From NCBI GenBank assembly GCA_934090685.1, contig CAKOJN010000003.1, positions 54,034 through 118,033 of the forward strand: DNA of 64,000 bases, in the 5' to 3' direction. A program made the position numbers and the translations under genes. This DNA comes from an uncultured Bacilli bacterium (GTDB lineage Bacteria > Bacillota_I > Bacilli_A > RF39 > UBA660). A model generated the notes under the pieces. The model saw nothing but the letters and a program-made list of their open reading frames with translations, did not search any database and was not told where the DNA came from. Positions 1 to 58,945 of this stretch are shown in pieces (positions within the stretch are counted from its first letter, which is position 1; every line of letters begins with the position of its first letter).

Positions 1-1184
1 TTATTAATTCTTATCTTTTTAATGTAATTTTGTTCATCAGTCACTTTTAATTGAGTGCTGTTATCATTTAGTATGGCATTATTGTTATTGTTAATATTAG
101 TGGTATTATTATTATTTGAGAGCAATAATACCATTTTAATAAAATATATTTCAACCAACATTTTTTGACTAGATGTTTTCTTCAACTCATTTGATAATGA
201 GAATAATTCTTGACATAATTTAATGTAAATATCATCTTTAAAATTACAATATTTATCTAATTGAGACTCATATTCACTGTCAAAATAATTTTTAGTATTT
301 TTATAAATCAAAATATCTCTTATGAAAACTTGTAACTTATTACAAACACTATCAAAATTAATACCTTTATTGCAAAATTTTTCTAATATTTTTAATAAAT
401 TTGACATATCAGAATTAAAAATATTATTAACAACTTCTAATAATTCTTCATCAGTTATTTCACCAATTATTTTAAAAATATCATCAGTTGTAATATCATT
501 TTTGTTTAATGATAATATTTGGTCTAAAAGATTTATTGCATCCCTCATTCCGCCATCAGAAATTTTAGCTATTAATTTAATAACTTTATCATTTACAGTT
601 CTATTTTCTAATTTCAAAATTTTATTTAATTGTTTTTCAATTGAATCCGTTGAAATTTTTTCAAAATCAAACTTTTGACATCTTGAAATTACAGTACTCG
701 GAATTTTATTCACCTCTGTTGTAGCTAATATGAATATTGCATGAGCCGGAGGTTCTTCTAAAGTTTTTAATAAGGCATTAAAAGCACTTAATGATAACAT
801 ATGAACTTCATCTATTATATATACTTTATATTTTAATTTACTAGGCATCAAATTTATACTATTTCTAATTTCTCTTATTTCATCAACGCCATTATTACTT
901 GCTGCATCTATCTCTATAATGTCTATTTCATTGTTCATATTATTCAAACATACTTCACATTTTTCACATAAATCTCCAATATTAGGGTTAAGACAATTAA
1001 CTGCTTTAGAAAAAATTTTTGCAATACTAGTTTTTCCAACGCCTCTTGGTCCAGCAAAAATATATGCATGAGCAATTTTATTTTCTTTTATACTATTTTT
1101 CAGTATTTTAACAACTATTTCTTGGCCAACAACATCTTTAAATGTTTTTGGTCTATATTTACGATATAAAGATACATATGTCAT
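1..1184 (-). CDS. dnaX: DNA polymerase III subunit gamma/tau, N-terminal ~394 codons (3' end runs off the window)
   Basis: Absent from the ORF track because there is no stop in the window. Hand translation from ATG at 1184 (GGAGG RBS upstream) gives MTYVSLYRKYRPKTFKDVVGQE..FAGPRGVGKTS (Walker A)..IIDEVHMLS..LKTLEEPP..ISRCQKFDF, the clamp-loader signature. Confidence 0.9.
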   Translation of the reverse strand, partial: MTYVSLYRKYRPKTFKDVVGQEIVVKILKNSIKENKIAHAYIFAGPRGVGKTSIAKIFSKAVNCLNPNIGDLCEKCEVCLNNMNNEIDIIEIDAASNNGVDEIREIRNSINLMPSKLKYKVYIIDEVHMLSLSAFNALLKTLEEPPAHAIFILATTEVNKIPSTVISRCQKFDFEKISTDSIEKQLNKILKLENRTVNDKVIKLIAKISDGGMRDAINLLDQILSLNKNDITTDDIFKIIGEITDEELLEVVNNIFNSDMSNLLKILEKFCNKGINFDSVCNKLQVFIRDILIYKNTKNYFDSEYESQLDKYCNFKDDIYIKLCQELFSLSNELKKTSSQKMLVEIYFIKMVLLLSNNNNTTNINNNNNAILNDNSTQLKVTDEQNYIKKIRIN

Positions 1185-1226
1185 TTTTGCCTCCATAAAT
1201 ATTATAACAGTTTATTAACAATAATT

Positions 1227-1634
1227 CTACCTTTTGTTAACAAAGAATTCCTTTATTTCATTCAAAAAATAATCATTATCAGCAACATCTAATTGCTCAT
1301 ATTTAACTGTATCATTAATTTTTTTTGTTTTACTTAAAATATAATATACTTTTTTTATTCTTGCTTCATTTATTATACTTTTGCACATTTCACAAGGTTC
1401 TAATGTAACATATAATTCACAATCATTAAGATTCCATGTTTTAATTCGTTTGGCAGCTTTTATTATTGCTAAAATTTCAGCATGCGCTAGTGGACTATTT
1501 TTTTTCTGTCTTTTATTATATTCTTTAGCAATTATCTTATTATTTTTCACTATTATACAAGAAACTGGAACATCTCCGTGTTTTAACGCTATATTATTTA
1601 ATTTTTTTAATTGTTCAATAATTATTTTTTTCAT
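1227..1634 (-). CDS. tadA: tRNA-specific adenosine deaminase
   Basis: 135 aa with the CMP/dCMP deaminase zinc motifs HAE..PCEMC. It has the classic tadA/ffs/dnaX neighbourhood. Confidence 0.88.
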   Translation of the reverse strand: MKKIIIEQLKKLNNIALKHGDVPVSCIIVKNNKIIAKEYNKRQKKNSPLAHAEILAIIKAAKRIKTWNLNDCELYVTLEPCEMCKSIINEARIKKVYYILSKTKKINDTVKYEQLDVADNDYFLNEIKEFFVNKR

Positions 1635-1674
1635 ATTATTTTACTCTTATGCAAACATTTTTTCGTATTTTTTT

Positions 1675-1757
1675 AAAAAAATATGTGCACACAATCATTT
1701 TGTTTAAGGCTGCTATCTTCCGATCCTGACCTGTTTCACAAACTAACTGTTGCACGT
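1675..1757 (-). ncRNA. ffs: Small (4.5S-type, ~80 nt) signal recognition particle RNA
   Basis: The minus strand reads GTGCAACAGTTAGTTTGTGAAACAGGTCAGGATCGGAAGATAGCAGCCTTAAACAAAATGATTGTGTGCAC followed by a T-run. The core AGGTCAGG..GGAAG..AGCAGCC matches the conserved SRP domain IV (E. coli 4.5S: CAGGUCAGGUCCGGAAGGAAGCAGCC). The 5' and 3' arms pair into one long hairpin. The ends are approximate. Confidence 0.75.
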
Positions 1758-1761
1758 ATTT

Positions 1762-1791
1762 ATTATATCATTGATTACATATCATTTTCAA
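1762..1791 (-). promoter_or_regulatory. Sigma-A-type promoter for ffs
   Basis: On the minus strand: TTGAAA (1791-1786), an 18-bp spacer, then TATAAT (1767-1762), about 6-8 nt upstream of the SRP RNA 5' arm. Confidence 0.5.
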
Positions 1792-1840
1792 GTATTATTT
1801 TTATTTATTATACATTTGTCATTAATTATTTTAATTAATA

Positions 1841-1856
1841 TGTTTCACGTGGAACA
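1841..1856. promoter_or_regulatory. parS centromere-like site (exact 16-mer)
   Basis: TGTTTCACGTGGAACA is the reverse complement of TGTTCCACGTGAAACA and an exact fit to the Firmicute parS consensus TGTTNCACGTGAAACA. It is embedded in a 36-bp near-palindrome TTAATTAATATGTTTCACGTGGAACATATTAATTAA. Confidence 0.85.
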
Positions 1857-2428
1857 TATTAATTAAAAATCAGTTATTAAAAATAGGTAATATCACATTA
1901 TAATATACATTGAGGTTAAAAATAAATAAATTTTAATATTATCCTTTATAATTGTACATTTTTTTAAATGGCATTTGTATTTTAAATATAAATTAATATT
2001 AAATATTATTATTGTATTTTTAATTATATTATTTATGACATACTTAAAATAATATAATAGGTAATATATATTAAATACATTAATGATTTAATTCTGACAT
2101 TTTAATTTCTTTATATTTTTTAAAAAAGTTTACTATATTAAAATAATATACAATATTTATTATTTTATCTGTTTTATTTATAAAATAATGTTTTTAAAAT
2201 AATAATTTCACTATTCTTGTGTTTTTACTTTTATTGTAAATTGTTAATATTTATTTTAATAGTTACTATCAAATATTTATAAATTTAGAGAGCAATTACT
2301 TTTTATTATATTACTTTTAGTAAATAATTATTAAATGTTTTGTATTAGAACCTTGAAATATATTAAAATACAAAACATTGTTTTGAAATATATAGAATAA
2401 ACAATAATTATTTTTTATCTTAATAAAT

Positions 2429-2444
2429 TATTTCCCGGGAAATA
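2429..2444. promoter_or_regulatory. Noc-binding-site (NBS)-type palindrome
   Basis: TATTTCCCGGGAAATA contains the B. subtilis NBS consensus ATTTCCCGGGAAAT exactly. It is part of a 29-bp segment (2425-2453) repeated identically at 2766-2794. Confidence 0.8.
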
Positions 2445-2726
2445 ATTTATTAATTATAAAATGCTTGATCTATATTTTTATATTTTATTTAAATTAAATT
2501 TATTAATGATAGTTTATTTTTTTAAGTTATATTTTACCTGAATTATAAAACAATATTAATATTTTTTAATTATTTTAAATAAATACGACTTTTTATATTA
2601 TATTTAATGAACTACTATTTTTTAAAAAAATCAATGACATTATAGTATTATAATTGTTTTTTTACAGTTGATACTTACTTTTTAATTTAAAATTATCATA
2701 ATATATAATTTTCATATAAAATGCTA

Positions 2727-2742
2727 TGTTCCACGTGAAACA
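2727..2742. promoter_or_regulatory. parS centromere-like site (exact 16-mer)
   Basis: TGTTCCACGTGAAACA is an exact parS consensus match. It lies 66 bp beyond the gyrA stop. On the minus-strand transcript it would also fold as a hairpin followed by UUUUAU. Confidence 0.85.
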
Positions 2743-2769
2743 TAGTATTTTATAATATAATGTTAAAAT

Positions 2770-2785
2770 TATTTCCCGGGAAATA
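2770..2785. promoter_or_regulatory. Noc-binding-site (NBS)-type palindrome, possibly doubling as the gyrA terminator stem
   Basis: TATTTCCCGGGAAATA is the second copy of the 29-bp repeat AAATTATTTCCCGGGAAATAATTTATTAA (2766-2794). It lies 23 bp beyond the gyrA stop codon. Confidence 0.8.
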
Positions 2786-2807
2786 ATTTATTAAAAAAAG
2801 AAGAAAA

Positions 2808-5393
2808 TTATTCATTTTCTTCATTTAGTTCTTTATCAATAATAGAAATTGAAGCAACTTTGTTGCTATTTTTTAAATTTATTAATTTTACACCTTTAGT
2901 TACCCTTCCCATTTCAGATATATTATTAACATCCATTCTAATGATAATTCCATTTTCAGTAATTATCATTAAATCTTTATCATTATCAGTAGATTTAAAT
3001 CCTATAACTTTACCATTTTTCTCTGATATATTAATGGTTTTAACCCCTTTACTTCCTCTTTTTGTTTCCCTATATTCAGAAATTGAAGTTTTTTTGCCAT
3101 AACCATTTTCTGTAACAACTAATAATAATTTATCGTCTTCAGAAACCTCTGTACCAACGCAAATATCATTTACTAAATTTATGCCTTTAACTCCTGACGC
3201 AGTACGTCCCATAATTCTTACTTCATTTTCATCAAAACGCGCCATTCTTCCGTTTGAAGAACACATTAAGATTTGATTATCACCAGTTGTTTTTTTAACA
3301 GATATTAATTCATCATCATCTTTTAAAGTTATAGCAATTTTTCCTGATTGCCTTATGTTATCAAATTCGCTAATCAAAGTTCTCTTAATTAAACCTTGTT
3401 TTGTACTAAAAAGCAAACATTTGTATGTGTTATCCTTTTCAATTTTAATAATGGTATTAATTTTTTCGTCTTTTTCTATTTGAATCAAATTAATTAATGG
3501 TAATCCCTTACCTACACGAGAATATTCTGGAATATTATAACCTTTCAATCTATAAACTTTACCTTTATTTGAAAAGAATAGTACATAATCATGCGTATTT
3601 AAAGAAATTAATTGTTCAACAAAATCTTCATCTGTTGTTGTCATCCCTTTTATTCCAACTCCACCTCGATTTTGAGATTTATAAGTATCTTTTGGAATTC
3701 TCTTTATATAATTTTTATTTGTAATTGTTACAATTACTTCCTCTTGAGGTATTAAAGATTCGTCTTCGATATAATCTACAGCTGTCATATCAATAGTAGT
3801 TCTTCTGTCATCACCATACTTATTCTTGATTTCTAACATTTCTTTCTTAATAATATCTAAAACTTTCTTTTCTGATGCTAAAATTGATTTTAATTCTTCT
3901 ATTTCTTTTAATAAAGTTTCTAATTCTGCTTCAATTTTTTCTCTTTCTAATCCAGTTAATCTTCTTAATTTTAATTCTAAAATTGCATCCGATTGAATTT
4001 CATCAAGACCAAATCTACTTATCAATTTTAATTTTGCTTCTTGATCTGTTTCTGCTGTTTTAATAATTTTAATTACTTCATCTATATTATCCTGTGCTAT
4101 TTTGTAACCATTCAATATATGTACTCGTTTCTCATCTTTATTTAAATCAAATCTTGTTCTTCTTATAATAACTTCACGTTGATGGTCAATATATTTAGAA
4201 ATAATTGATTTTAATCCCAGCGTTTTAGGAGTTAAACCATCTAACATTAAGAATATTATTCCATAGTTAATTTGAAATGAAGTATGCTTATATAAATTGT
4301 TTAAAACAACTTGAGGATTAGCATCTCTTTTTAATGTAATAGTTATTTTTACTCCATCTTTTAAATCTGTATGGTAATCAGAAATACCTTCAATAACCTT
4401 GGTATGAACTAATTCTGCCACCTTATTCTTAAGTTCCATAGTATTCACTCCAAATGGAACTTCTGTAAATACTATGCAATTATGTCCGTTATGTTCTTCT
4501 ATTGTTGCTTTACTTCTAATTGTTATAGAACCTCTACCTGTTTCATATGCTTTTTTTATGCCAGAATTACCAAGTATTACACCTCCAGTGGGAAAATCAG
4601 GACCTTTTATATATTGCATTAATTCATCTATTGTTATATCAGGATTGTCTATATATGCAACACAACCATCGATAACTTCTGATAAATTATGAGGCGGAAT
4701 ATTAGTTGCCATACCAACTGCAATGCCCATTGAACCATTTACTAAAATATTAGGAAATCTTGATGGTAAAACTTTTGGTTCTTTTTTTGTAACATCAAAG
4801 TTATCATCCATATCAACAGTATCCTTATTTATATCTTTTAATAATTCTAATGATATTTTTGCTAAACGAGATTCAGTATATCTCATTGCAGCAGCACCAT
4901 CACCTTCAACGTTACCAAAATTGCCATGGCCATCTACTAGCATATATCTTTGATTAAAATCTTGTGCTAGACGTACCATTGCTTCATATATTGATGAATC
5001 GCCATGAGGATGATAATGTCCCATAACATATCCAACTGTTGTTGCACATTTTCTATGAGGTTTATCTGGTGTATATCCACATTCATACATTGACCATAAA
5101 ATTCTTCTGTGAACAGGTTTTAAACCATCTCTTAAGTCTGGCAAAGCACGTGATGCTATAACACTCATTGAATATTCTATAAATGATGTACTTACTTCTT
5201 TAACTATATCATTATGATCTAATCTATCTCTCTCGTGAAAATATCCACTAAATTCATTGTCTTTTTTTTCTGCTATTGATGTATTAGTATTATCCAAGTT
5301 ATCTGTTGTTAAAGAATCATTACTATTATCACTATCATTATCTAGTGCTCTGTTTAATAATTCTTCATTAATATTCTTTTCTTCGTTATTCAT
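2808..5393 (-). CDS. gyrA: DNA gyrase subunit A
   Basis: 861 aa with the motifs YSMSVIASRALPDLRDGLKPVHRR and AAMRYTE (active-site Tyr) plus C-terminal beta-pinwheel repeats. A GGAGG RBS precedes the ATG. The N-terminus has an N/D-rich extension. Confidence 0.97.
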   Translation of the reverse strand: MNNEEKNINEELLNRALDNDSDNSNDSLTTDNLDNTNTSIAEKKDNEFSGYFHERDRLDHNDIVKEVSTSFIEYSMSVIASRALPDLRDGLKPVHRRILWSMYECGYTPDKPHRKCATTVGYVMGHYHPHGDSSIYEAMVRLAQDFNQRYMLVDGHGNFGNVEGDGAAAMRYTESRLAKISLELLKDINKDTVDMDDNFDVTKKEPKVLPSRFPNILVNGSMGIAVGMATNIPPHNLSEVIDGCVAYIDNPDITIDELMQYIKGPDFPTGGVILGNSGIKKAYETGRGSITIRSKATIEEHNGHNCIVFTEVPFGVNTMELKNKVAELVHTKVIEGISDYHTDLKDGVKITITLKRDANPQVVLNNLYKHTSFQINYGIIFLMLDGLTPKTLGLKSIISKYIDHQREVIIRRTRFDLNKDEKRVHILNGYKIAQDNIDEVIKIIKTAETDQEAKLKLISRFGLDEIQSDAILELKLRRLTGLEREKIEAELETLLKEIEELKSILASEKKVLDIIKKEMLEIKNKYGDDRRTTIDMTAVDYIEDESLIPQEEVIVTITNKNYIKRIPKDTYKSQNRGGVGIKGMTTTDEDFVEQLISLNTHDYVLFFSNKGKVYRLKGYNIPEYSRVGKGLPLINLIQIEKDEKINTIIKIEKDNTYKCLLFSTKQGLIKRTLISEFDNIRQSGKIAITLKDDDELISVKKTTGDNQILMCSSNGRMARFDENEVRIMGRTASGVKGINLVNDICVGTEVSEDDKLLLVVTENGYGKKTSISEYRETKRGSKGVKTINISEKNGKVIGFKSTDNDKDLMIITENGIIIRMDVNNISEMGRVTKGVKLINLKNSNKVASISIIDKELNEENE

Positions 5394-5405
5394 ATTTATT
5401 TCCTC

Positions 5406-7325
5406 CTATATATCAAGATTTTTAACATAACCTGCATTTTCTTCTATAAATTTTCTTCTAGGTTCTACTTCGTCACCCATTAATTTTTCAAAGATTGCAT
5501 CTGCTGCAATACAATCATCAACAGTTATTTTTCTTAAAACTCTTTTTTCAATATCCATAGTTGTCTCATTTAATTCTTCCGCATCCATTTCACCAAGTCC
5601 TTTCATTCTTGCTATTTCCGCTCTTTGCCTTACATTTTCAGGTAAAGATTCTAAATAACTATCCAGTTCCTTTGGACTTAATACATATTTTCTTGTTTTT
5701 CCATGCATAATTCTGAATAATGGAGGCTGAGCAGCATATACATGACCTGCTTCCACAATTGGTTTAAAAAATCTATAAAATAAAGTTAATAACAATACCC
5801 TAATGTGAGAACCATCTACATCTGCATCGGTCATTATTATAATTTTGTCATATCTTAATTTAGATAGATCAAAATATTCTCCAATACCAGTACCAAATGC
5901 AGTTATTATTGTTTTAATTTCTTCGTTTCCTAATGCTCTATCTAATCTAGCCTTTTCAACATTCAATATTTTTCCTCTCAATGGTAAAATTGCTTGTGTC
6001 ATGGAATTTCTACCTTTTTTAGCAGAACCACCGGCTGAATCTCCCTCGACAATAAATATTTCAGATTCAGATGGATCTTTACTTTTACAATCAGATAATT
6101 TACCAAAAAAATTTGTTATTGTTAAATCTGTTTTTCTTGTTGCTTCACGTGCTTTTTTAGCAGCCATTCTAGCGTTTCTAGCTAATATAGCTTTATTAAC
6201 AATAATTTTAGCGGAGTCGGGATTTTCTAATAAAAACTGTTCAAAACCTTCTGCAAATACAGCATCAGCAATAGGTTTTACGTCAGAATTTCCTAATCTA
6301 CCTTTAGTTTGACCTTCAAATTGAGGATTAGGATGTTTACATGAAATGATCATTGTAATTCCTTCTTTTACATCATCCTCTCTCAAATTATCATCTTTCT
6401 CTTTTAAAATATTTGATTTTCTAGCATAAGCATTTATAACTCTAACCAATGCTCTTTTAACACCATCCTCATGGGTACCACCATCATGAGTGTTAATATT
6501 ATTAACAAATGAATATATATTTTCATTATATCCTGAATTGTACTGTAATGCTACTTCAAAGAAAATTCCATTTTTTTCACCTTCTAAATGAATAATATTA
6601 TCATGAATAGGGGTTTTACCTTGATTGATAAATCTAACATATTCACTTATTCCACCTTCGTATAAGAATTTTTCACCTTGTGTATCTTCATCATCTCTAT
6701 CGTCTCTTAATGTTAGCTGAAGACCTTTATTTAAAAATGCTAACTCCCTTGTTCTAATTTTTAAAGTTTCATAATCAAAAATATCAGTATCAAATATTTC
6801 AGAATCAGGTTTAAATGATACTGTAGTTCCCGTTCTATTTGGTTCACATTCACCAATTATTGTTAATTTTTGAGCAGTCTTACCACCATCCTCAAATTTT
6901 GTTTGATAAATTTTACAATCTTTATATACAGTAACTACAACCCATTTAGATAATGCATTAACTACTGATGCACCTACACCATGTAATCCACCAGAAACTT
7001 TGTAACCACCACCGCCAAATTTTCCACCAGCGTGAAGAACTGTATAAACAGTCTCAACAGTTGAAATTCCTGTTTTTGGATGAATACCTACCGGAATACC
7101 TCTTCCATCATCCTTAACTGTAATTGAATTATCTTTATTAATTATTATTTCAATATTATGACAAAAACCAGCTAGTGCTTCATCAATAGAGTTATCAACA
7201 ATTTCCCATACTAAATGATGCAAGCCCTTAACATCAGTAGTACCAATATACATTCCAGGTCTCTTTCTTACAGCCTCCAATCCCTCTAATACTTGAATTT
7301 CATTTACTCCATAATCATCATTCAT
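5406..7325 (-). CDS. gyrB: DNA gyrase subunit B
   Basis: Motifs [16 protein letters not shown], the GHKL ATPase fold, the Toprim EGDSAGG, and [12 protein letters not shown]. The track start (7334) is a GTG overlapping the recF stop. The ATG at 7325 has better RBS spacing. Confidence 0.95.
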
Positions 7326-7330
7326 TTTAA

Positions 7331-8413
7331 TCACCTTCCTATTTCATCTAAATTATAAATTTTTGCTTTATTTAATATATTTTTATTAATACTTTTTAAA
7401 TCTGTGGTTGTAATAAATATTTGAATATCATTACTTAACGATTTAAAAATATTATTTCTATTTTTTTCATCAAGTTCACTAAATAAATCATCAAGCAATA
7501 AAATTGGTTTTATATCATAATCATTAATAAATATACAAATTTCAGACAGTTTCATAGCTAAAACAATTAATTTTTGAATTCCCTGAGAACAATATTCTCT
7601 TGCATCATAATTATCATATAAGAAAATAATATCATCACGATGGATTCCAAATAATGCTATACCAGTCTTAATTTCTTTTGTTCTATTTTTTTTAATTGAT
7701 TCTAATATTTTGTCTTTATTTTCATCTTTAAAATCAGATATGTATTGTAAACATATTTTTCCTTTCTTATCATAATTTTTATATATATCGTTGATATAAT
7801 TATTTATTTTAAATATATATTCTCGCCTGAAATTATAAATTTTCAAACCTTCTTCAGAAATTTTTTCATCAATAATGTTTAAATATTCAATATCAGATGA
7901 TTTATTTAAATTTAATCTTTTTAAATACTCATTTTTGTTTTTAATTAAATTATTATAATTATTTAAATTTTTTAAATACTGTTTATTTAATTGTGAAAGT
8001 TCAATGTTAAAATAATTTCTTCTGACTGATGGTGCTGATCTTATAAGTTTAAGTTCATCTGGCGAAAGTATAATAATTCTATACTGCGATATAAATTCAC
8101 TTAATTTTTTTTGAGGAAATGAGTTAATTTTAGTTTTTGTCCCAAACTTATCATAAAGTAATTCTAAGTTTTTCTTAATTCCATAATCATAACAAGCAAT
8201 TTTTATTTTAAAAAAATTTTCTCCTTTTTTTATTATAGACCACTCGTTATTAGTCTTAAAAGACTTTGCTAAACTACCAATATAAATAGATTCAATAATA
8301 GATGTCTTACCAATTCCATTTTTTCCAATTATAATATTTAAATTTGAAAATTTATCAAATATTTTTTTTCTATAATTTCTAAAATTTAATAATTCAATTT
8401 TGGTAATATTCAT
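7331..8413 (-). CDS. recF: DNA replication and repair protein RecF
   Basis: 360 aa with N-terminal Walker [10 protein letters not shown] and an SMC-like signature/Walker [12 protein letters not shown]. It occupies the canonical position upstream of gyrB. Confidence 0.92.
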
Positions 8414-8525
8414 TTTAAACCTCTTTTACCCCCAAATTTTGAGTTTTTCTTTTTTTATGTACACCTACACACTGTTATAATTATACCATAATTTAAGGTA
8501 TAAAAAAAGGAAAAAGTAATTTTTC

Positions 8526-8978
8526 TTATACTTTTCCCTTAATTCTTTCTTCAAGAATATATTTTAATCTTGATGCACGTAAAATTTGATTTGTTAATGA
8601 ACCAATTGATACATCAAATTCTATAATATCTCCATTTTTAAATTCAATAATTGACTTTTTTTGTGAAGATTTATAATACCTATTGATTTTTTCTAAGTTT
8701 ATCCAAATACAATCATTTCTATCTGGAGAAGTTGTCGGAAAAAATATTATTTTTCTACTTTCTTCAACTATTATAGGTGATTTATGAGTTATTCCAAGTA
8801 ACTTTTTTGTTCCTTCTCTTCTTCCGTCAAAAGAACTTCCAAAATACTCGCAGCTGTGTTCCAAAATTTGCATTGGAGTTACATTTACTACATATGACTC
8901 ATTATTTTCTATAATTTTAGAACTCTTACTATCCATAGGCAATATAACTTGAGTATCAAATGTTATTTCATAATCCAT
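8526..8978 (-). CDS. ComK-family competence transcription factor homologue (short, 150 aa)
   Basis: It aligns along its length with B. subtilis ComK as I remember it: FGSSFDGRREGT vs FGSSYAGRKAGT, THKSPIIV vs SHKPPIMV, IIFFPTTSP..DCIWI vs IFLFPTLSS..QCGWI. A strong AAGGAGG RBS is present. Confidence 0.75.
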   Translation of the reverse strand: MDYEITFDTQVILPMDSKSSKIIENNESYVVNVTPMQILEHSCEYFGSSFDGRREGTKKLLGITHKSPIIVEESRKIIFFPTTSPDRNDCIWINLEKINRYYKSSQKKSIIEFKNGDIIEFDVSIGSLTNQILRASRLKYILEERIKGKV

Positions 8979-9026
8979 ATTTTCCTCCTTTTCTTAAATA
9001 TTTGTTTGATATGGTAACACAATTAA

Positions 9027-9055
9027 TTTGTCGAATTTTGTCGAATTTTGTCGAA
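9027..9055 (+). promoter_or_regulatory. Three tandem Spo0A-box-like repeats (TTTTGTCGAA x3, 10-bp period)
   Basis: AATTTGTCGAATTTTGTCGAATTTTGTCGAAAAA: each unit contains an exact 0A box TGTCGAA (consensus TGNCGAA / TTTGTCRAA). The array lies 49-77 bp upstream of the comK-like start. Confidence 0.65.
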
Positions 9056-9159
9056 AAATGTAAAAAAAATAAAAAACATCCATTTTTTAGATTGATTTTA
9101 AAATATTTTAACAAGATGTTCACATAATTTTGATTAATTAAATTTAATAATTTTTTTTA

Positions 9160-9191
9160 CACAAAAAAATATAGTCTTCGATTTGACTATA
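9160..9191 (-). terminator. Rho-independent terminator after dnaN
   Basis: On the minus strand: TATAGTC-aaatcgaa-GACTATA hairpin followed by TTTTTTTG. Confidence 0.6.
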
Positions 9192-9215
9192 TTTATTAAA
9201 AAAAATTTATATTTG

Positions 9216-10334
9216 TTAATATGTTTTCATAGGTAATATTAATTGAATAAGTTCGTCATTATTTTGTTCTTTAACAATTATTGGACTTATTTCACCATTT
9301 AAAAGTAAATATATCTTTTCTTCTTTAAATATTTTTAATGCCTCTATCATATATTTTGCACTAAATGATATTTTTATGTTATTACAATATTTATTGATAA
9401 TGTTCATCTTTTCTTCAACTTTTCCCATTTCTTGGCTTGATGCTTTTATTACAATTGTATTACCATTTAGATCCAAATCTATTATATTTTTATCTTTTGA
9501 TTGAGTAATTAAAGAAGCTCTGTCCAAAATATTATAAAAATCTTTTAAATTTAATTCTAATTCATATTTATATTCTTTTGGAAATGAATTATCTGTATTT
9601 GGATAAGTTCCATTTAATAATGAAGTTTGGAAAATTAAATTTCCATGTTTAAATATTGCCTTATTTGCAAATGTATGTATTTCTAATTCATTATCTTTTT
9701 CTATTGTTTTTATAAATTCATTAATGTTTTTAGCGGGAATAACTATATTTATATTTTCATCATATGATTTATCTAACTCAATAGTTACTTTAGATAATCT
9801 ATAAGAATCTGTAGCAACACATTCAAATTTTCTATTGTGAATTTTAAAATCAACGCCAGTTAATAGTGGTCTACTTTCTTGAATAGAACATGCAAATGAT
9901 GTTTGACTAACTATTTCTTTGAATTTTAAACTAGATAGTTTAATTGGTTTTTTAACTTCTTCTAAATTAATATCAGGAAAGTCCTCTTGCAAAAAGCAGT
10001 TAAAATTATAGATTGATGTTTCTGTTTTAAAAGAAACTTCATTACTTTCAAAATTCTCAATCATAATAGTAGTTTCTGGGAGTTTTCTTATAATTTCTAA
10101 TAATGATTTACCATATATTATAATACATCCTGTTTCGTCTATAGAATTAATATCTTTCTTTTCAATAAAATATTGTATAGTAATATCATTATCTGTTGCT
10201 GTTAGATATAATCCTTCTTTTTTTAAATCAAATTTAATTCCATTCAAAACTGGTATAATATTTCTTGTTGATAGAGCTCTACTAACAAAGTTTATACCCT
10301 CTAGTAATATATTTTTTTCAATTAACATTTTCAT
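9216..10334 (-). CDS. dnaN: DNA polymerase III beta sliding clamp
   Basis: 372 aa with typical three-domain clamp length and the N-terminal motif ...RALSTRNIIPVLNGIKF. It lies immediately downstream of dnaA. Confidence 0.93.
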   Translation of the reverse strand: MKMLIEKNILLEGINFVSRALSTRNIIPVLNGIKFDLKKEGLYLTATDNDITIQYFIEKKDINSIDETGCIIIYGKSLLEIIRKLPETTIMIENFESNEVSFKTETSIYNFNCFLQEDFPDINLEEVKKPIKLSSLKFKEIVSQTSFACSIQESRPLLTGVDFKIHNRKFECVATDSYRLSKVTIELDKSYDENINIVIPAKNINEFIKTIEKDNELEIHTFANKAIFKHGNLIFQTSLLNGTYPNTDNSFPKEYKYELELNLKDFYNILDRASLITQSKDKNIIDLDLNGNTIVIKASSQEMGKVEEKMNIINKYCNNIKISFSAKYMIEALKIFKEEKIYLLLNGEISPIIVKEQNNDELIQLILPMKTY

Positions 10335-10466: not shown

Positions 10467-11864
10467 TTATTCACATATTTTTTCCCTTAAAATTTTAATT
10501 TCTTCTTGGAGTTTTAAATTTGTTTTTAATTCTTTAGAAATTTTTTCGTGTGAGTAAATAACAGTAGAATGATCTCTTCCTCCAAATTCTAATCCTATTC
10601 TTTGAAGGCTTTCATCTGTCATTATACGACTTAAATACATTGCAATCGCACGAGCATCTGCAATATTTTTCTTTTTCATTTTTCCTTTTAACATTGATGC
10701 ATCTAAATTAAAATATTTGGATACAATGTCTATTATTTTAGCAACAGAGTTCGTTCTATATACTGTTTTTGGTACAAATTCTTGTAATGCTTCTTGTGCA
10801 ATTTCAAGTGTAACGTCTTTTATATTGAATGCTGCTTTATAAGCAACAATTCTGATAACAGCTCCTTCTAAATTTCTTATGTCACTACCACAATTGTTTG
10901 CTATATAATCTATAACCAATTCATTAATATCTAAGTCAAAGTCATTGATCATTATTTTATTTTTTATAATATTTTTCTTTAACTCTAATTCAGGTGGATT
11001 AATTGATTCTGTTAATCCCCATCTAAATCTAGTTTTTAGTCTTTCTTCTAAATACTTATAATCATTAATTGATGTGTCGGAAGCAATAATAATTTGCTTT
11101 TCATTGTCATATAGCGTATTAAAGGTATTTGTAAATTCAATTTGTGATTTAGTAGCATTTTCTAAAAATTGAATATCATCAATCATCAATACATCTACAC
11201 TTCTGTATTTATCTCTAAAAGCTTCTAAATAAGTTACATTATTATCAAATTTATTTTTAGCATTAATAATTGCTCTGTAATCATTTGTAAATTGTTCTGC
11301 AGTAATATATAAAACTTTCTTATCAGAATGAGTAACAATATAATTTCCAATTGCATGCATAAGATGTGTTTTACCAAGACCACTTTTAGCATATATAAAA
11401 TATGGGTTATAAAGTTTTCCTGGATTTTGAGCAACGGCAAGTGCAGTACCATATGCCAATCTATTAGATTCACCTACTACGAAAGTATCAAAAGTATATT
11501 TTTGATTAAAATTACTTATATATTTATAATTATTAATATTATTATTTATAGATTCATCATTATCTTTATTTAAAATATCATCTCTTTTTGCTTTTTTTTG
11601 TTCTAATTTATTTATATCTCTTTCAAAAATATATTCTATTTCACACGTATCATTAGTGATATCATCAATTAATTCTTGAATTATAGAAGTATAATTTTTA
11701 GTTATATTTTGTAAAAGTAACTCATTTGATGGAACAATAATTATCATTTTACTGTTTTCATATGAATATAGTTTTAAGTCTTTAAATAAATAATTATAAG
11801 ACATTAATGAAACTTTAGTTTTAATTTTAGATAAAAATTCATTCCATATTTCATTTGAATCCAT
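10467..11864 (-). CDS. dnaA: Chromosomal replication initiator DnaA
   Basis: AAA+ Walker A GLGKTHLMHAIGN, Walker B LMIDDIQF, and domain IV ..GGRDHSTVIYSHEKI. The track start at 11885 is a TTG. The ATG at 11864 (MDSNEIW) has the best spacing from the GGAAAGGA RBS. Confidence 0.95.
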   Translation of the reverse strand: MDSNEIWNEFLSKIKTKVSLMSYNYLFKDLKLYSYENSKMIIIVPSNELLLQNITKNYTSIIQELIDDITNDTCEIEYIFERDINKLEQKKAKRDDILNKDNDESINNNINNYKYISNFNQKYTFDTFVVGESNRLAYGTALAVAQNPGKLYNPYFIYAKSGLGKTHLMHAIGNYIVTHSDKKVLYITAEQFTNDYRAIINAKNKFDNNVTYLEAFRDKYRSVDVLMIDDIQFLENATKSQIEFTNTFNTLYDNEKQIIIASDTSINDYKYLEERLKTRFRWGLTESINPPELELKKNIIKNKIMINDFDLDINELVIDYIANNCGSDIRNLEGAVIRIVAYKAAFNIKDVTLEIAQEALQEFVPKTVYRTNSVAKIIDIVSKYFNLDASMLKGKMKKKNIADARAIAMYLSRIMTDESLQRIGLEFGGRDHSTVIYSHEKISKELKTNLKLQEEIKILREKICE

Positions 11865-11885
11865 AATAATCATCCTTTCCAACAA

Positions 11886-12364
11886 ACTTTCTAATTTAAT
11901 TATAAATCAACTATTTTTAATGTCAAACAAAAAAAATTATTACCATTTATATTAACAAGTTATAAACTATTTGTAAACATTTTTTTCTTAATTTTTCTTA
12001 TATAAATTGAGTTATCAACAATATCAACATTTTTACAATATTATATTATGTATATTTGTTAATAAAATGTTTGTAAGTTAACATAATTTTGTTAGTATAG
12101 TGTTGATAAGTTAACATAATTACAGTGCTAATATTAGTTAACATAATATAAACATCACAAGAAACATAAATAAAGATCTTTATATTATATAAAAGTATTA
12201 TAAATTCATATTATTATTAAATTTTTTATAAATAAAATGAATAAAAAAAATTAAATAATTAAAAATTTCATTTGAATCAAGTAAAAGACACTTATTAACT
12301 AAATTAAAAAAATATGTGTTTTTTCAATAGAAAAATAAAAAAATATATAAATTTTTAAATATTA
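11886..12364. other. oriC region (dnaA-rpmH spacer) with DnaA-box-like sites and an AT-rich unwinding-type segment
   Basis: Gene-strand polarity switches here. TTATCAACA (12012-12020), ATATCAACA (12021-12029) and TGTTGATAA (12101-12109) are one- to two-mismatch versions of TTATCCACA. The stretch 12180-12360 is almost pure A/T. Confidence 0.7.
12075..12147 (+). repeat. Three direct copies of AGTTAACATAAT inside oriC
   Basis: AAGTTAACATAAT at 12075-12087 and 12108-12120, and TAGTTAACATAAT at 12135-12147. The middle copy abuts the TGTTGATAA DnaA box. Confidence 0.8.
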
Positions 12365-12393
12365 TTGACAATTTATATCAATTATTATATAAT
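12365..12393 (+). promoter_or_regulatory. Sigma-A promoter of rpmH-rnpA
   Basis: TTGACA (12365-12370), a 17-bp spacer, then TATAAT (12388-12393). Confidence 0.7.
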
Positions 12394-12427
12394 CTAACTC
12401 AGTTGAAACGGAAATGGAGGTATTAAA

Positions 12428-18544: not shown

Positions 18545-19699
18545 ATGGAAGAAAAAGATAAAATAATTTATGTTTCAGTAGATGATATAATTCCGAATAG
18601 ATTTCAACCAAGACTTGCTTTTGATGAAAAAGAATTAAACAGTTTGTCTGAATCTATTAAAAAATATGGTGTTATCCAACCAATTGTATTAAGAAAAATT
18701 GGTGAGAAATATGAAATAATAGCAGGTGAAAGAAGATATAAGGCCTCTCTTTTAGCGGGTTTAATGAAAATACCAGCTATAATAAACCAAACGGATGATA
18801 ACACAAGTGCTGAAATAGCATTATTGGAGAATCTTCAAAGAAAAAATTTAACAGTAATAGAGGAAGCACAATCATATAAAAAATTATTAGATAGAGGTTT
18901 TACCCAAGATGAAATAGCAAATAAATTAGGGGTTAGTCAATCATCTATAGCTAATAAATTAAGACTTTTAAATTTGCCTAAAGAAGTCCAAGAAGCTTTA
19001 TTATATAACAAAATTTCTGAACGTCATGCAAGAAGTTTACTATCATTAAATAATAAAGAAAAACAAATTCAATTATTAAACAAAATAATTAATGAAAAAT
19101 TAACTGTTAAACAAACCGAAGAAGAAATAAGTGATATATTAAATAACAAAACAAACTTTAATTTTGAAACTAATGATCTAACAACTACTAATAATAAAAG
19201 TGATAAATCTGTTCAAGAATTTTTAAATATAGATGTTCCAGAAGTAATAAGTATTGGTCAAGAAATTGAAAATGATATACCAGAAAATAGTCACAATCAA
19301 ATAGAAATAAAAAATATTGAATCTAATTCTCTATCGATAAACCCTTTCCAAGAAAATTTTATGGATAAGATAAAAGAAATAAATGAAATTAGTAGTCAAG
19401 AAATATCACCTGATATGGAAAGTAAAATAGAAAAGTTAGAATTAGAAACTAGGCCAAATTTAATGAAAAATAATGAAACTAGTATTTTTAATAGTTCTAA
19501 TAATAATGTTCAAATTCAAATGAAAGAGCATGATGAATCTGATAATTCTGCTAGTAATAAACAACTAAGTTTGCCAAAAGTGATTGAAAAAATAAGAAAT
19601 CTAATTACAGAATTAAACTATGATAATAATGTTATTTCTACTAGTGAAGTGGATTTATCTGATCAATATCAAATAGTAATTAATATAAAAAAAGAGTAG
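18545..19699 (+). CDS. ParB-family CTPase/DNA-binding protein, Noc-like by HTH residues
   Basis: IPNRFQPR, IIAGERRYKA (CTP-binding GERR box), QSSIANKLRLLNLPKEVQEA and ISERHARSL resemble B. subtilis Noc (PNRFQPR, QSTIANKLRLL, ITERHARAL) more than Spo0J (PNPYQPR, RPHIANHLRLL, SMGHGRTL). About 130 aa of N/S/E-rich insert precedes the C-terminal domain. Confidence 0.8.
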   Translation: MEEKDKIIYVSVDDIIPNRFQPRLAFDEKELNSLSESIKKYGVIQPIVLRKIGEKYEIIAGERRYKASLLAGLMKIPAIINQTDDNTSAEIALLENLQRKNLTVIEEAQSYKKLLDRGFTQDEIANKLGVSQSSIANKLRLLNLPKEVQEALLYNKISERHARSLLSLNNKEKQIQLLNKIINEKLTVKQTEEEISDILNNKTNFNFETNDLTTTNNKSDKSVQEFLNIDVPEVISIGQEIENDIPENSHNQIEIKNIESNSLSINPFQENFMDKIKEINEISSQEISPDMESKIEKLELETRPNLMKNNETSIFNSSNNNVQIQMKEHDESDNSASNKQLSLPKVIEKIRNLITELNYDNNVISTSEVDLSDQYQIVINIKKE

Positions 19700-19808
19700 G
19701 AAAAAATAATTTTCTTACTTTTTGTTTACACTTTTAAGTTAAATTATTTTGAATATTTTTTTTTATAATGATATAATTATTATAGAAATATAGAAAAGAG
19801 GTATGTAT

Positions 19809-20963
19809 ATGGGTTTAATTAAAGCTCTTACTGGAGCAACTTCTACAGCATTAGGAGATCAATTTAAAGAATTTGTTAATTGTCCTACCATAGAAAAAAA
19901 TGTTTTAATACAAAGAGGAATTGTTACACATGGTAAAGGAAATACTAATCCTTCTGAAGGAATAATTTCTAATGGTAGTACAATTGTTGTACCACAAGGT
20001 ATGGCTATGATGATCATAGAAAATGGTGAAATTAAAGAATTTACAGCAGATGCTGGTACGTTTTATTTTGATACAAGTAGTGAACCGAGTATATTTACAG
20101 GAGGACTTGGTAAAGGTATAATTGATACCTTTAAAACAATAGGTAAAAGGTTTACGTATGGAGGGCAAACTGCTAAGGATCAAAGAGTTTATTACGTTAA
20201 TTTATTAACAATAACAGGAAATAAATTCGGTTCTCCTCAACCAAAAAAAATTACTGATGAAAAATATGGTATGTTAGAAGTAACTTTTTTTGGAGAATTC
20301 GCATTTAAAGTAGTTGATCCAATATTATTAGTAAATAGTGTTATAGGTGCTAATCCTCAAGATACTATTACTTATGAAGAAATTATAGGTAGTCAATTAC
20401 AATCAAAATTTGTTGAAAAAGTTACGCAAGCAATATCAGTAGTAATGAGAAAAAATAAGGTTTCATTTGGTGATATAGGAATGTATAATAGTGATATATC
20501 AGATGAAATGAATGTTTGTTTAGATGAAAGTTGGAAACAAAAATATGGTTTAGAAGTAACAGATGTTGCTTTAGGTGATATTAATCTAACAGATGATTCA
20601 ATGAAGAAAGTAAATAAAGTTGATGAGGCAACTATTTTCTCAAATAAAAATTTACAATCTGGACTTATGGCTTCAGCATCAGCGGATGCTTTAAGAAATG
20701 CTTCTAGTAATGAAAATGGTTCTATGATGGGATTCATGGGTATGAATATGGCTAGTTCAGCAGCAGGAAGTATGATGGGAGTAGCAAATGAAGGTTCTGA
20801 TGTGGAAGGATATAAACCGGAAACTAATCAACCCGAAATAGGTACAATATTTAATAATAAAAAAGAAGAAACTACAAAAAATAAAGAAAAAGTAACTTGT
20901 CCTAAATGTAAGGCAGAGGTTAATGGTGCATATTGTAGTCAATGCGGAACTAAAATAGAGTAA
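19809..20963 (+). CDS. SPFH-domain protein of the YdjI / COG4260 'virion core protein-like' family with a C-terminal zinc ribbon
   Basis: The N-terminus MGLIKAL..GDQFKEF.. is typical of the family. The C-terminus has CPKC..CSQCG. The start is taken at the second ATG for RBS spacing. Confidence 0.6.
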   Translation: MGLIKALTGATSTALGDQFKEFVNCPTIEKNVLIQRGIVTHGKGNTNPSEGIISNGSTIVVPQGMAMMIIENGEIKEFTADAGTFYFDTSSEPSIFTGGLGKGIIDTFKTIGKRFTYGGQTAKDQRVYYVNLLTITGNKFGSPQPKKITDEKYGMLEVTFFGEFAFKVVDPILLVNSVIGANPQDTITYEEIIGSQLQSKFVEKVTQAISVVMRKNKVSFGDIGMYNSDISDEMNVCLDESWKQKYGLEVTDVALGDINLTDDSMKKVNKVDEATIFSNKNLQSGLMASASADALRNASSNENGSMMGFMGMNMASSAAGSMMGVANEGSDVEGYKPETNQPEIGTIFNNKKEETTKNKEKVTCPKCKAEVNGAYCSQCGTKIE

Positions 20964-25368: not shown

Positions 25369-25878
25369 ATGAAAAAAATAGTTATAATTATAGGTATTTT
25401 ATTTATAATACTAATTAATTATGAAAAACAAGATTATTTAGTGAATGATAGCATTAGATTTAGAGTAATCTCAAATAGTGATTCTGCAAAAGATGTATTA
25501 ATAAAACAAAAGGTGAGTAGAAAAATTTCTAATATTATTTTTGATAAAGGTAATTCTAAAGATGATGTAAGAAAGAACATTTTAAAAAATATCAGTAAAA
25601 TTGAAAAAGAAGTAGATCAAGTTTTAACTGATAATGATTATGATAATGAATTTAATATAAATTATGGTTATAATTATTTTCCAGAAAAAGAGTATAATGG
25701 AAGAACATTAGAAGCAGGAAATTATGAATCATTGGTTGTTACAATTGGAAAAGGTGATGGTAATAATTATTGGTGTATTTTGTATCCACCACTATGTATG
25801 ATAAACGAAGATGATAGTGTGGGTAATAAAATAAAATATAAATTTAAGTTAATAGAATATATTAAAAACATATTATAA
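25369..25878 (+). CDS. spoIIR: Stage II sporulation protein R
   Basis: Signal/TM followed by IRFRVISNSDS and NYWCILYPPLC, the two signature blocks of SpoIIR. Confidence 0.8.
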   Translation: MKKIVIIIGILFIILINYEKQDYLVNDSIRFRVISNSDSAKDVLIKQKVSRKISNIIFDKGNSKDDVRKNILKNISKIEKEVDQVLTDNDYDNEFNINYGYNYFPEKEYNGRTLEAGNYESLVVTIGKGDGNNYWCILYPPLCMINEDDSVGNKIKYKFKLIEYIKNIL

Positions 25879-32125: not shown

Positions 32126-32555
32126 ATATTTGTCCAATATAATAATTGAGAAGCCTCATAAAATTATAGTATTAATATTTATTTATTATTTATTAGTATT
32201 ATATAGAGTATAAGTCAATTAATAGTGAAAAAATTCTAATTTTATTTCACATATTGTATTTGATATTTTCGTTATTATTAATCAATTATATGTTTTTAAT
32301 TAATATTAACTTATTGATTATTTATGTATTTATCTTATTAATAATAATTTATATCTTAATACTTAATGTTGAAATATGTATCTTATTAAAAATAAGATTT
32401 AGAATCCTAATCTACTAAGGACAAATGATATATCGTTGAGAAAGTAAAACTCAAAAAGATTAGAAATTAAGCTAAATACTGATAATATTTAGAAGTATTT
32501 ATATTAAAGTAATATTTAATATAAATGATTCTTAATTTATTTTCGCGAAACTCGG

Positions 32556-56633: not shown

Positions 56634-56763
56634 GCATATTTATGCTTATTTTTTATTTTATAGAAAAATTTGTTCTTTGAATTAAATTTACTAATTTCCC
56701 TATAATAATTGAAAAAAATGTATAATTGTGGTATTATTAAATAAGTACAATAAGGAGCATCTT

Positions 56764-58828: not shown

Positions 58829-58945
58829 TTATAATAATGATTCTGGCATTTCAGGTTCGTCAAATAACACAGTAATGCATCCAGTAGTCGCAGTAGTTGC
58901 TACTAATGCTCCAAGAAGAGCAGTTAATTTAGCAAATAATTTCAT
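58829..58945 (-). CDS. agrD: AgrD-type autoinducing peptide precursor (38 aa)
   Basis: Below the track cutoff. Its ATG overlaps the agrB-like TGA (ATGA) and sits behind AAGGAGG. The product is MKLFAKLTALLGALVATTATTGCITVLFDEPEMPESLL: an amphipathic leader, a single Cys, and an acidic DEPEMPE tail as in known AgrD proteins. Confidence 0.8.
   Translation of the reverse strand: MKLFAKLTALLGALVATTATTGCITVLFDEPEMPESLL

Follow-up and report, generated by a model that had tools for sequence, protein, structure and literature searches.

The spacer between gyrA and ffs

The window, by which we mean the whole 64-kb stretch of DNA that was analysed, contains an AT-rich, non-coding block of 1,043 bp (1765..2807) that extends from the stop codon of gyrA to the 5′ end of ffs. 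gyrA (2808..5393, minus strand, 861 aa) is the conserved anchor upstream of this block, and ffs, the small SRP RNA gene (1673..1764, minus strand, 61.6 bits in Rfam), is its downstream boundary and has a promoter, TTGAAA-18-TG-TATAAT, at 1791-1762 on the minus strand. With a GC fraction of 0.13-0.15, the block exceeds every other non-coding gap of the window in both size and AT content, and it is the longest gap among the 61 ORF-defined genes, for which the median is 48.5 bp, in agreement with the original prediction that it is unusually long. The same prediction had stated that the spacer lacks any ORF of 60 aa or more, which the ORF list confirmed; the only ORFs of at least 30 aa that touch it, of 51 aa and 38 aa, are both at the ffs end. 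Rfam models at gathering thresholds detected no non-coding RNA within the spacer, and matched only ffs.

Four palindromic sites had been predicted in this block, and both the letters of the window and motif searches placed them at the same coordinates. parS-1 (TGTTTCACGTGGAACA, 1841..1856) and parS-2 (TGTTCCACGTGAAACA, 2727..2742) match the 16-bp parS consensus TGTTNCACGTGAAACA exactly, and the Noc-binding sequence (NBS), TATTTCCCGGGAAATA, is present twice, as NBS-1 (2429..2444) and NBS-2 (2770..2785). Three of the sites are embedded in longer palindromes: parS-1 forms the centre of a 40-bp palindrome (1829-1868) in which one pair is asymmetric, NBS-1 forms that of a perfect 34-bp palindrome (2420-2453), and NBS-2 is inside a 24-bp palindrome (2766-2789). 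As predicted, the identity of the two NBS copies spans 29 bp (2425-2453 and 2766-2794), and the last pair, parS-2 and NBS-2, is 43 bp apart centre to centre. These sites are real and far beyond chance, given that the base composition leads to an expectation per 64 kb of ~9e-5 exact parS and 1.3e-5 exact NBS. No further parS (≤2 mismatches) or NBS (≤3 mismatches) was found elsewhere in the 64 kb. In agreement with the original prediction, CCCGGG is present only in the two NBS and TNCACGTGRA only in the two parS; a small correction is that plain CACGTG is also found at 5147 (gyrA) and 6146 (gyrB).

NBS-2 is located 23 nt past the gyrA stop and adjoins the U-tract of an intrinsic terminator (2793..2822, minus strand), in which a hairpin with a 9-bp stem (2800-2822; -8.6 kcal/mol, z = -3.6) covers the stop codon and is followed by U7 (2793-2799). 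Because gyrA has this separate intrinsic terminator, the palindromes are dispensable for its termination.

A probable oriC region (11886..12427) was assigned between dnaA (10467-11885) and rpmH, the position of rpmH being taken from the gene table of scaffold locus L001, and it is ~9.1 kb from the array. Both GC skew and AT skew switch sign at ~12 kb in the window, and this switch, together with dnaA ~9 kb away, makes the position of the array origin-proximal. S. aureus Noc and ParB are reported to spread 8-10 kb (PMC5540599; RicO preprint 10.64898/2026.03.06.710092), and the distance of ~9 kb between the array and oriC fits this known range. The spacer was also considered as a second origin element, which was rejected because there are no DnaA boxes (≤1 mismatch) in 1765-2807 and the skew switch is at ~12 kb.

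Conservation of the array and its site classes

For comparison, we used 77 evaluable species-level relatives with GyrA 69-84% identical. When the gyrA-ffs spacer was compared across them, as the original prediction had proposed, the sites were not missing in close relatives: exact parS was found ≤3 kb past the gyrA stop in 73 of the 77 (~95%), NBS in 60, and both together in 59, although the shared ancestry of the relatives means that such locus counts overstate the number of independent events. Arrays, covering 0.20 Mb, contained 347 parS and 131 NBS, compared to 3 parS and 32 NBS in 1.24 Mb outside of them. Thus 131 of 163 NBS (~80% of those seen in the gyrA-locus relatives) were in an array, and the relatives also have dispersed NBS, both genic and intergenic. 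Single arrays reached 11 parS, 7 NBS and up to 13 sites, and the array in the window, with 4 sites in 1 kb, is sparse. The first site was located at a median of 24.5 nt past the gyrA stop in the relatives, and among the 46 relatives in which ffs was detected, 11 had sites on both sides of it. MAGs that carry arrays include CAKOHZ01 (883-kb contig), CAKOOM01 and CAMIXH01.

Metagenome data gave at least 120 stretches with a tight NBS-parS module, 116 of which had gyrA and/or tadA (gyrA in 87 and tadA in 95 of the stretches). Three of the four without either gene were contigs of ≤1.5 kb, and in the fourth the module was located within ~330 bp of the end of the locus. The module seemed to occur in a 48%-GC organism as well, but this was discarded, since L187, the sole high-GC outlier, is an assembly chimera of Bacteroidetes and Bacilli.

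Similarity between species peaks in the spacer only at the four sites, while the intervening DNA drifts. A conspecific strain differs by an indel of ~100 bp in the spacer and keeps the sites; the core of its parS-2 is inverted between the same flanks. We take this pattern to show strong purifying selection on the sites, at a fixed locus and across a large clade of uncultured gut Bacilli.

In 199 related loci (2.2 Mb), we counted 704 exact parS, 421 exact NBS and 5 hybrids (1,130 in total). All 5 were single-base outer hybrids, and inner hybrids were not found at all; at the level of sequence, these counts show that parS and NBS are kept as two discrete classes. The parS consensus of the clade, A-TGTT[T/C]CACGTG[A/G]AACA-T, is an 18-bp palindrome, compared to the 16-bp consensus of Firmicutes, with the flanking A in 96% and the flanking T in 94%, and the NBS consensus is flanked by AAA/TTT (67-88%). 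Judged by these frequencies, selection reaches past the 16-mers into the flanks.

Among neighbours ≤30 bp apart, there were 29 parS-NBS pairs against 14.4 +/- 2.7 expected from label shuffling, and none of 5,000 shuffles reached 29. Two parS were never closer than 33 bp, and parS and NBS were interleaved with gaps down to 2 bp, the tight natural pairs of the two being 18-28 bp apart start to start. Tight neighbours are, by this measure, preferentially heterotypic, one parS with one NBS. Strict tandem units were seen in some relatives, with a 39-bp unit repeated 8 times in L051, a 62-bp unit repeated 6 times in L081, and a 117-bp unit of parS and NBS in L056. After masking, a search of the arrays for a third motif left only SRP-RNA sequence and degenerate parS halves.

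ParB-family proteins and the reading of the sites

The only ParB-family gene near the array encodes a Noc-like protein of 384 aa (18545..19699, plus strand), which is the predicted reader of NBS. It is located 16 kb from the array and directly downstream of rsmG (gidB), as is canonical noc. The protein has the Pfam domains ParB_N and HTH_ParB, and its best structure matches are Noc, with 203 bits compared to 161 for Spo0J. The NCBIfam Noc model (TIGR04285) scored 272.2 bits, which is below its curated cut-off of 315, compared to 171 for generic ParB. GERRYK and ENLQR motifs are present, at positions that match GERRxR/ENLQR, which we take to be the CTP-binding elements of ParB and Noc.

The specificity residues of the protein are Q-K-N-R (Q173, K179, N184 and R201), with N at position 184, where Noc almost invariably has K. 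Among 150 family representatives, Q173 and R201 were present in all 150, and K179 in 142. Since the combination of Q173 and R201 with K at 179, at 184 or at both leads to NBS-specific binding (PMC7383237), the presence of Q173, K179 and R201 allows the Noc-like protein to be read as NBS-type.

Canonical Noc has a 10-aa N-terminal amphipathic helix that is needed for membrane binding and nucleoid occlusion. This membrane-targeting helix (~10 aa, plus helix alpha2) is absent from the Noc-like protein, which starts at the equivalent of residue 23 of G. thermoleovorans Noc and whose ORF leaves no room for an upstream extension. A PNRFQPR box was detected in 147 of 150 representatives, and the distance of its start from the N-terminus is 14-29 residues, and 14-21 in all but two of them. 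Residues 1-203 are confidently folded in the predicted layout, followed by a disordered linker (~203-340, ~140 aa) and a small C-terminal domain; like N184, this linker sets the protein apart from Noc, as does the range of total length in the subfamily (227-775 aa). Two motifs, I-x-VP-x-V and INPFQ, are conserved within the linker. By its predicted features, the NBS reader is a non-canonical Noc without the membrane helix, and the helix-less subfamily is large and appears to be previously undescribed.

A reader of parS was searched for in several ways. tblastn with the core of the Noc-like protein and a fragment of B. subtilis Spo0J revealed no parS-type ParB in the window and ~200 related loci, and Pfam searches of 56 window ORFs (most of those of at least 90 aa) and of the gene tables of L001 and L082 gave no second ParB. 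Scaffold ends L001 and L082 (~80 kb of scaffold overall), the neighbourhoods of distant Noc-like orthologs, and the regions of two relatives with homologs (70% and 48% identical) of a gene near the right edge of the scaffold segment were likewise without ParB, and database searches returned only Noc-like orthologs. No protein with the parS-type recognition residues R173 and G201 was found in the ~80 kb of scaffold or the ~200 related loci, which represent a small part of each genome. ParA was not seen in the ~80 kb examined either, and S. aureus and S. pneumoniae are likewise without ParA.

The ancestral gene cluster is noc-soj-spo0J (PMC8136486), and soj and spo0J do not follow noc in either the window or the relatives. 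This absence could mean that the clade has lost soj-spo0J, with its sole ParB-family protein, or a variant of it, reading both parS and NBS; the lack of a second ParB-family gene in any DNA examined and the N at position 184, where Noc has its near-invariant K, would fit as well. We regard a single reader as unlikely, however, since Q173 and R201 with one Lys (179) is an NBS-specific combination, the dual-specificity variants mostly having T or S at 201 (PMC7383237), and since the first two residues are found in every family representative. The rarity of hybrid sites (5 of 1,130) is what two exclusive readers would lead one to expect, Noc of B. subtilis was unresponsive on parS DNA (PMC8429893), and the ParB search covered only a small part of each genome.

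A candidate composite centromere

We think it quite probable that the spacer serves as a composite centromere near the origin, made of dedicated non-coding DNA and carrying loading sites for two ParB-family CTP-dependent clamps. The support for this function comes from motif identity and conservation, all of it computational. The platform for ParB-family clamps envisaged in the original prediction gains strong support from the recurrence of arrays, at this locus in 73 of 77 relatives and also in at least 120 metagenome stretches, from spacer conservation confined to the motifs, and from the NBS-type protein encoded 16 kb away. Our literature search found no paper on such a block, consistent with the earlier statement that no described one was known.

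In the mechanism we propose, a canonical ParB encoded elsewhere in the genome would nucleate on each parS, bind CTP, close as a clamp, and slide outward for ~10 kb, thereby reaching dnaA and oriC. Multiple sites would raise the loading flux and produce one large partition complex, which would mark the origin and recruit SMC. The Noc-like protein would nucleate on the NBS of the same strip and spread likewise. Since it lacks the membrane-targeting helix, it is probably no direct tether between DNA and membrane, and it would more likely recruit a partner via its long disordered linker, or modulate the ParB/SMC complex. Tandem duplication and indels may lengthen and shorten the arrays, with the sites kept by selection.

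Tentatively, the helix-less Q-K-N-R proteins might be a distinct class of ParB-family clamp, rather than nucleoid-occlusion factors, that loads together with ParB at a single composite "two-clamp" centromere and whose linker-borne partner motifs anchor, insulate or time the origin. NBS born inside a parS cluster, together with the missing membrane helix, could preserve a halfway state in the evolution of Noc, where the change in specificity preceded the grafting of the helix.

The NBS half could also serve as a control device for replication or SMC, where the Noc-like clamp beside parS restrains initiation at oriC, or serves as roadblock or insulator against ParB and the SMC that ParB loads. 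In S. aureus, initiation is restrained by Noc, which has small peaks near dnaA (PMC5540599), 4-5 relatives have NBS ~9.3 kb upstream of the gyrA stop, which is the oriC region by the gene order of the window, and the tight heterotypic pairing of parS and NBS suits interference or hand-off. RicO-ricS is a precedent for a second site-specific factor that limits ParB-loaded SMC. Such a role, which we consider quite unlikely, refines the composite centromere more than it replaces it, and co-operative loading would leave the same sequence.

It is very improbable that the palindromes act as RNA terminator hairpins, or as DNA cruciforms in AT-rich supercoiled DNA beside the gyrase genes, and not as protein sites. 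All four can form hairpins (-5.8 to -14.2 kcal/mol), the score of one parS is terminator-like, and several sites are within longer palindromes, but folding is common to any palindrome and gyrA already has its terminator. The cores are invariant without covariation, and 26% of parS lack symmetry at positions 5/12, against what would be expected if a hairpin were maintained. The letters are those of two known protein-binding consensuses with a matching NBS reader gene nearby, and arrays of up to 13 sites are unnecessary for termination. An intrinsic terminator or REP-like repeat was rejected on these invariant cores and asymmetric parS, the restriction to one locus, and the separate gyrA terminator. 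A selfish or mobile repeat (MITE- or REP-like), or a neutral relic resembling parS and NBS, is hardly credible despite the strict tandem units in L051, L081 and L056, since the repeats are limited to one locus, only cores of 16-24 bp are conserved between species, 2.9 million viral contigs gave 0 matches, and neither transposase nor terminal repeats were found.

Among known systems, the F-plasmid sopC consists of twelve 43-bp repeats and is a tandem centromere bound by a ParB-family protein. Plasmid tandem-repeat centromeres are likewise non-coding arrays of short palindromic sites for ParB-family proteins that grow by unit duplication, whereas the composite array belongs to the chromosome, is conserved vertically at a single locus, and has two interleaved site types for two paralogous predicted readers. 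On the B. subtilis chromosome, parS sites are dispersed and mostly intragenic. Firmicutes ParB-parS systems (B. subtilis Spo0J/parS, and S. aureus and S. pneumoniae, with SMC loading near oriC) share with the array the same 16-bp consensus, a position near the origin and several sites per chromosome. Here, however, up to 11 parS are contained in ≤2 kb of dedicated non-coding DNA at one locus past gyrA, compared to five parS over ~400 kb in S. aureus (RicO preprint 10.64898/2026.03.06.710092).

Noc-NBS of B. subtilis and S. aureus has the same 16-bp NBS, a reader with Q173, K179 and R201, and the gene after rsmG, but canonical NBS are "scattered around the chromosome" (PMC8429893), and those seen in this clade are mostly in the parS array. 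RicO-ricS of S. aureus and RacA-ram of B. subtilis are also cases of a second site-specific binder that co-clusters with parS around the origin, and RicO functionally interacts with ParB-loaded SMC (preprint 10.64898/2026.03.06.710092). Both proteins are from families unrelated to the Noc-like protein; ricS is non-palindromic and 5-12 kb from parS, whereas NBS here is 18-50 bp from parS, and RicO has a membrane helix of its own, which the Noc-like protein lacks.

The motifs and proteins are thus of known kinds, and it is the composite array at a fixed locus and the helix-less Noc subfamily that appear to be undescribed. Why parS sites cluster and what drives the clustering are listed as open questions in a review of the field (PMC7333895). 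Hundreds of independent-looking, compact, non-coding candidate centromeres, in which only the sites are conserved, offer a comparative set on site number, spacing and turnover. This would be the first case found of systematic interleaving between the loading sites of two paralogous CTP clamps, and such an arrangement makes collision, exclusion or co-operation between clamps testable on short natural DNA fragments. The helix-less subfamily also bears on the origin of Noc from ParB, and on a possible function of NBS binding beyond membrane tethering.

The hosts are abundant, uncultured gut Bacilli with reduced genomes. Regarding their nomenclature, "Candidatus Scybalousia" is a Bacteroidales homonym, and the synonym that applies here is Ca. 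Alloscybalousia (Bacilli incertae sedis).

Recurrence of the parS/NBS array downstream of gyrA

The window comes from a gut-metagenome scaffold of 170 kb (ENA ERZ28614050; 24.7% GC), and its relatives are uncultured Bacilli with varying database labels (Tenericutes, Erysipelotrichaceae, 'Clostridium sp. CAG'). The minus-strand gene order is dnaA, dnaN, comK, recF, gyrB, gyrA, spacer, ffs (the SRP RNA gene), tadA and dnaX, and the plus-strand order is rpmH, rnpA, yidC, jag, mnmE, mnmG, rsmG and one ParB-family gene; GC and AT skew switch sign at ~12 kb, adjoining dnaA. The spacer (1765-2807) is the longest and most AT-rich intergenic gap of the window. All four palindromes of the original prediction were present in it, namely two ParB sites (parS; 1841-1856 and 2727-2742) and two Noc-binding sites (NBS; 2429-2444 and 2770-2785), with no further copies within the 64 kb. 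Since gyrA has its own terminator (2793-2822) and ffs its own strong promoter (1791-1762), the 1 kb in between is not needed by either flanking gene.

The whole analysis was computational. Loci were fetched from 80 species-representative genomes with GyrA as the anchor, giving 77 evaluable loci (76 species-representative relatives and the window's own locus). Up to 3 kb past the gyrA stop, parS (≤1 mismatch) was found in 73 of the 77, so that the predicted sites recur at the gyrA-ffs locus, while NBS was found in 60 and both together in 59. Loci carried a median of 4 and a maximum of 11 parS, and at most 7 NBS; the first site lay a median of 24.5 nt past the gyrA stop codon, and arrays spanned a median of 632 bp. 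Within arrays, 347 parS and 131 NBS were counted in 0.20 Mb, against 3 parS and 32 NBS in 1.24 Mb elsewhere. The array sites are neither due to chance nor private to the window's genome. An independent metagenome scan, using the tight NBS-parS pair as query, returned at least 120 stretches; among the matches listed, 87 contained gyrA and 95 tadA. Neither marker was present in 4 of those listed: 3 of these were contigs no longer than 1.5 kb, and the other had the module at most ~330 bp from the locus end.

A comparison of the spacer across relatives, proposed with the original prediction, identified the four sites as its conserved parts. In BLASTN against 79 other-species loci, similarity peaked at the four sites (53-62 loci), and the DNA between them matched mostly 1-5 loci, apart from minor peaks reaching 26. 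In a conspecific strain (contig L002, GyrA identity 100%), the sites were retained in a spacer with a ~100-bp indel. The clade parS logo was A-TGTT[T/C]CACGTG[A/G]AACA-T, with the flanking A at 96% and T at 94%, and NBS was flanked by AAA and TTT (67-88%); the logos show selection reaching past the 16-mers at both site types. Strict tandem units were found in some relatives (39 bp x8; 62 bp x6; a 117-bp unit with one parS and one NBS), which, together with the indels, indicates that arrays turn over by duplication and indels. No third recurrent motif was found in the arrays once both motifs were masked.

The parS core is reversed on the same strand between the two conspecific strains (TGTTTCACGTGGAACA at 2727-2742 of the window vs TGTTCCACGTGAAACA at 3166-3181 of L002), with flanks otherwise near-identical and both asymmetric positions altered jointly. 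The change resembles the outcome of template switching or palindrome-templated inversion, not of two independent substitutions. L002 is a 3.4-kb contig binned as 'Bacteroides helcogenes', yet its GyrA is that of the window. The sole high-GC outlier, L187, keeps the usual array-ffs-tadA-dnaX layout in its Bacilli half; it was rejected as a genuine high-GC carrier because the contig is apparently a chimera, in which Bacteroidetes SusD genes (1-6200) are joined to a Bacilli array locus (6200-9295). L187 and the binning of L002 both look like public-data artefacts.

Site classes and their predicted readers

Across 199 loci (2.2 Mb), 704 sites were pure parS and 421 pure NBS; the remaining 5 were each hybrid at a single outer discriminating base, with no inner-base hybrids. 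From these sequences, two readers rather than one are predicted for the array sites. Adjacent pairs at most 30 bp apart were parS-NBS in 29 cases against 14.4 +/- 2.7 expected from within-array label shuffling (0 of 5,000 shuffles reached 29). The minimum distance was 33 bp for parS-parS and 18 bp, a 2-bp gap, for parS-NBS. Close neighbours are preferentially heterotypic; although common ancestry inflates the counts, their direction is clear.

The plus-strand gene at 18545-19699 (384 aa) is the sole ParB-family gene in the window, ~80 kb of scaffold and ~200 related loci. Its product scored 203 bits against Noc and 161 bits against Spo0J structures, and 272 bits with the NCBIfam Noc model (under its cut-off of 315) and 171 bits with generic ParB. 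Its four specificity positions (per Jalal et al. 2020) are Q173-K179-N184-R201. NBS-specific bases are read by Q173 and R201, given one Lys at 179 or 184, and most dual-specificity variants have T or S at 201 (Jalal et al. 2020, PMC7383237); NBS, but not parS, is thus the predicted target of the Noc-like protein. Membrane binding and nucleoid occlusion by Noc require its 10-aa N-terminal amphipathic helix (PMC8429893, PMC7333895). The region bearing this helix is missing from the Noc-like protein, whose start aligns with position 23 of G. thermoleovorans Noc, and upstream extension of the ORF is not possible. AlphaFold modelled residues 1-203 as a confident core, 203-340 as a disordered linker and 343-381 as a small C-terminal domain. 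The linker motifs I-x-VP-x-V (~229-237) and INPFQ (265-269), invariant among close orthologs, are candidate partner-binding peptides; INPFQ was present in 15 of the best 150 family representatives.

Among 1.84 billion representatives searched, the best 150 matches were analysed (core identity 58-81%, length 227-775 aa). All 150 had Q173 and R201 and no N-terminal extension, and 113 had Q-K-N-R, which shows a large helix-less Noc-type subfamily. The Noc-like gene lies in conserved synteny with rsmG, an SPFH gene and a PBP gene, and soj-spo0J is absent from its ancestral place in this neighbourhood (ancestral cluster: PMC8136486). The SPFH/Band-7 membrane-associated protein (386 aa, 19803-20963) directly follows the Noc-like gene, and does so even for orthologs with identity as low as 54%. 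This protein may serve the helix-less one as a partner at the membrane, or the adjacency could merely be general synteny.

No canonical parS-reading ParB was found in the window, ~80 kb of scaffold or ~200 related loci, as would be expected of a clade lacking any such protein. That reading is improbable: parS is under selection, ParB is to our knowledge its sole reader, and the residues of the Noc-like protein predict no parS binding. A canonical ParB is therefore very probably encoded elsewhere in the genome.

Possible function of the array

We propose that the block acts as a composite centromere, at which every parS would load ParB and every NBS the Noc-like clamp, and both clamps would bind CTP, close and slide. 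Noc and ParB spread over 8-10 kb in S. aureus (PMC5540599; RicO preprint 10.64898/2026.03.06.710092), and such spreading from the array would cover dnaA and oriC, 9 kb off. Many sites within transcription-free DNA would give a high, steady loading flux. The contribution of the second, Noc-like clamp is the least certain step of this mechanism. Direct membrane tethering by it is unlikely because a membrane helix is missing; the leading options are linker-mediated recruitment of a partner, or modulation of ParB/SMC like that by RicO, an origin-proximal DNA binder of S. aureus.

Three other readings of the palindromes were rejected: hairpins or terminators, given the separate gyrA terminator, the invariant site cores and the asymmetry of 26% of parS sites at positions 5/12; an origin element, as the spacer contains no DnaA box; and a mobile repeat, as the NBS-parS module had no match in 2.9 million viral contigs.

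Both motifs, both protein families and the clustering of parS near origins, which reaches 20-23 sites in some species (PMC7333895), are already known. No description of a non-coding block concentrating both site types was found in the literature, in agreement with the original prediction. Three features appear to be undescribed: a fixed-locus array in dedicated non-coding DNA, systematic parS/NBS interleaving including tight heterotypic pairs, and a large helix-less Noc-type subfamily.

Dispersed NBS and other features

NBS beyond the arrays were genic in 20 cases and intergenic in 12. Some were positionally conserved, ~4.6 kb upstream of the gyrA stop (recF in the window's order) and at an rsmI-like gene. 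A site ~9.3 kb upstream of the gyrA stop, corresponding to the oriC region next to dnaA by the window's gene order, was found in 4-5 genomes (L059, L065, L079, L073; ~11.3 kb in L013); the window itself has no NBS in its oriC region. These isolated sites are reminiscent of the small peaks of S. aureus Noc around dnaA. An ORF of 385-490 aa with no Pfam match lies between dnaA and rpmH, within the expected oriC, in two loci (L083, 2361-3833; L085, 2659-3816) and is absent from the window.

In the otherwise canonical dnaA-dnaN-recF-gyrB-gyrA cluster of the window, a ComK competence regulator gene (8526-8978; Pfam, 159 bits) lies between dnaN and recF. This very AT-rich genome, with relatives labelled Tenericutes/Mycoplasmatota, carries the sporulation genes spoIIR (25369-25878) and spoIID (55022-55963). 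An agr-like module consists of AgrB (58942-59547) and a LytTR regulator and kinase (56728-58762). At 32400-32492, in a 543-bp gap, the PGK RNA motif (Rfam RF03040) matched with 80.9 bits; the ORF downstream of the gap encodes 122 aa and matches no Pfam family.
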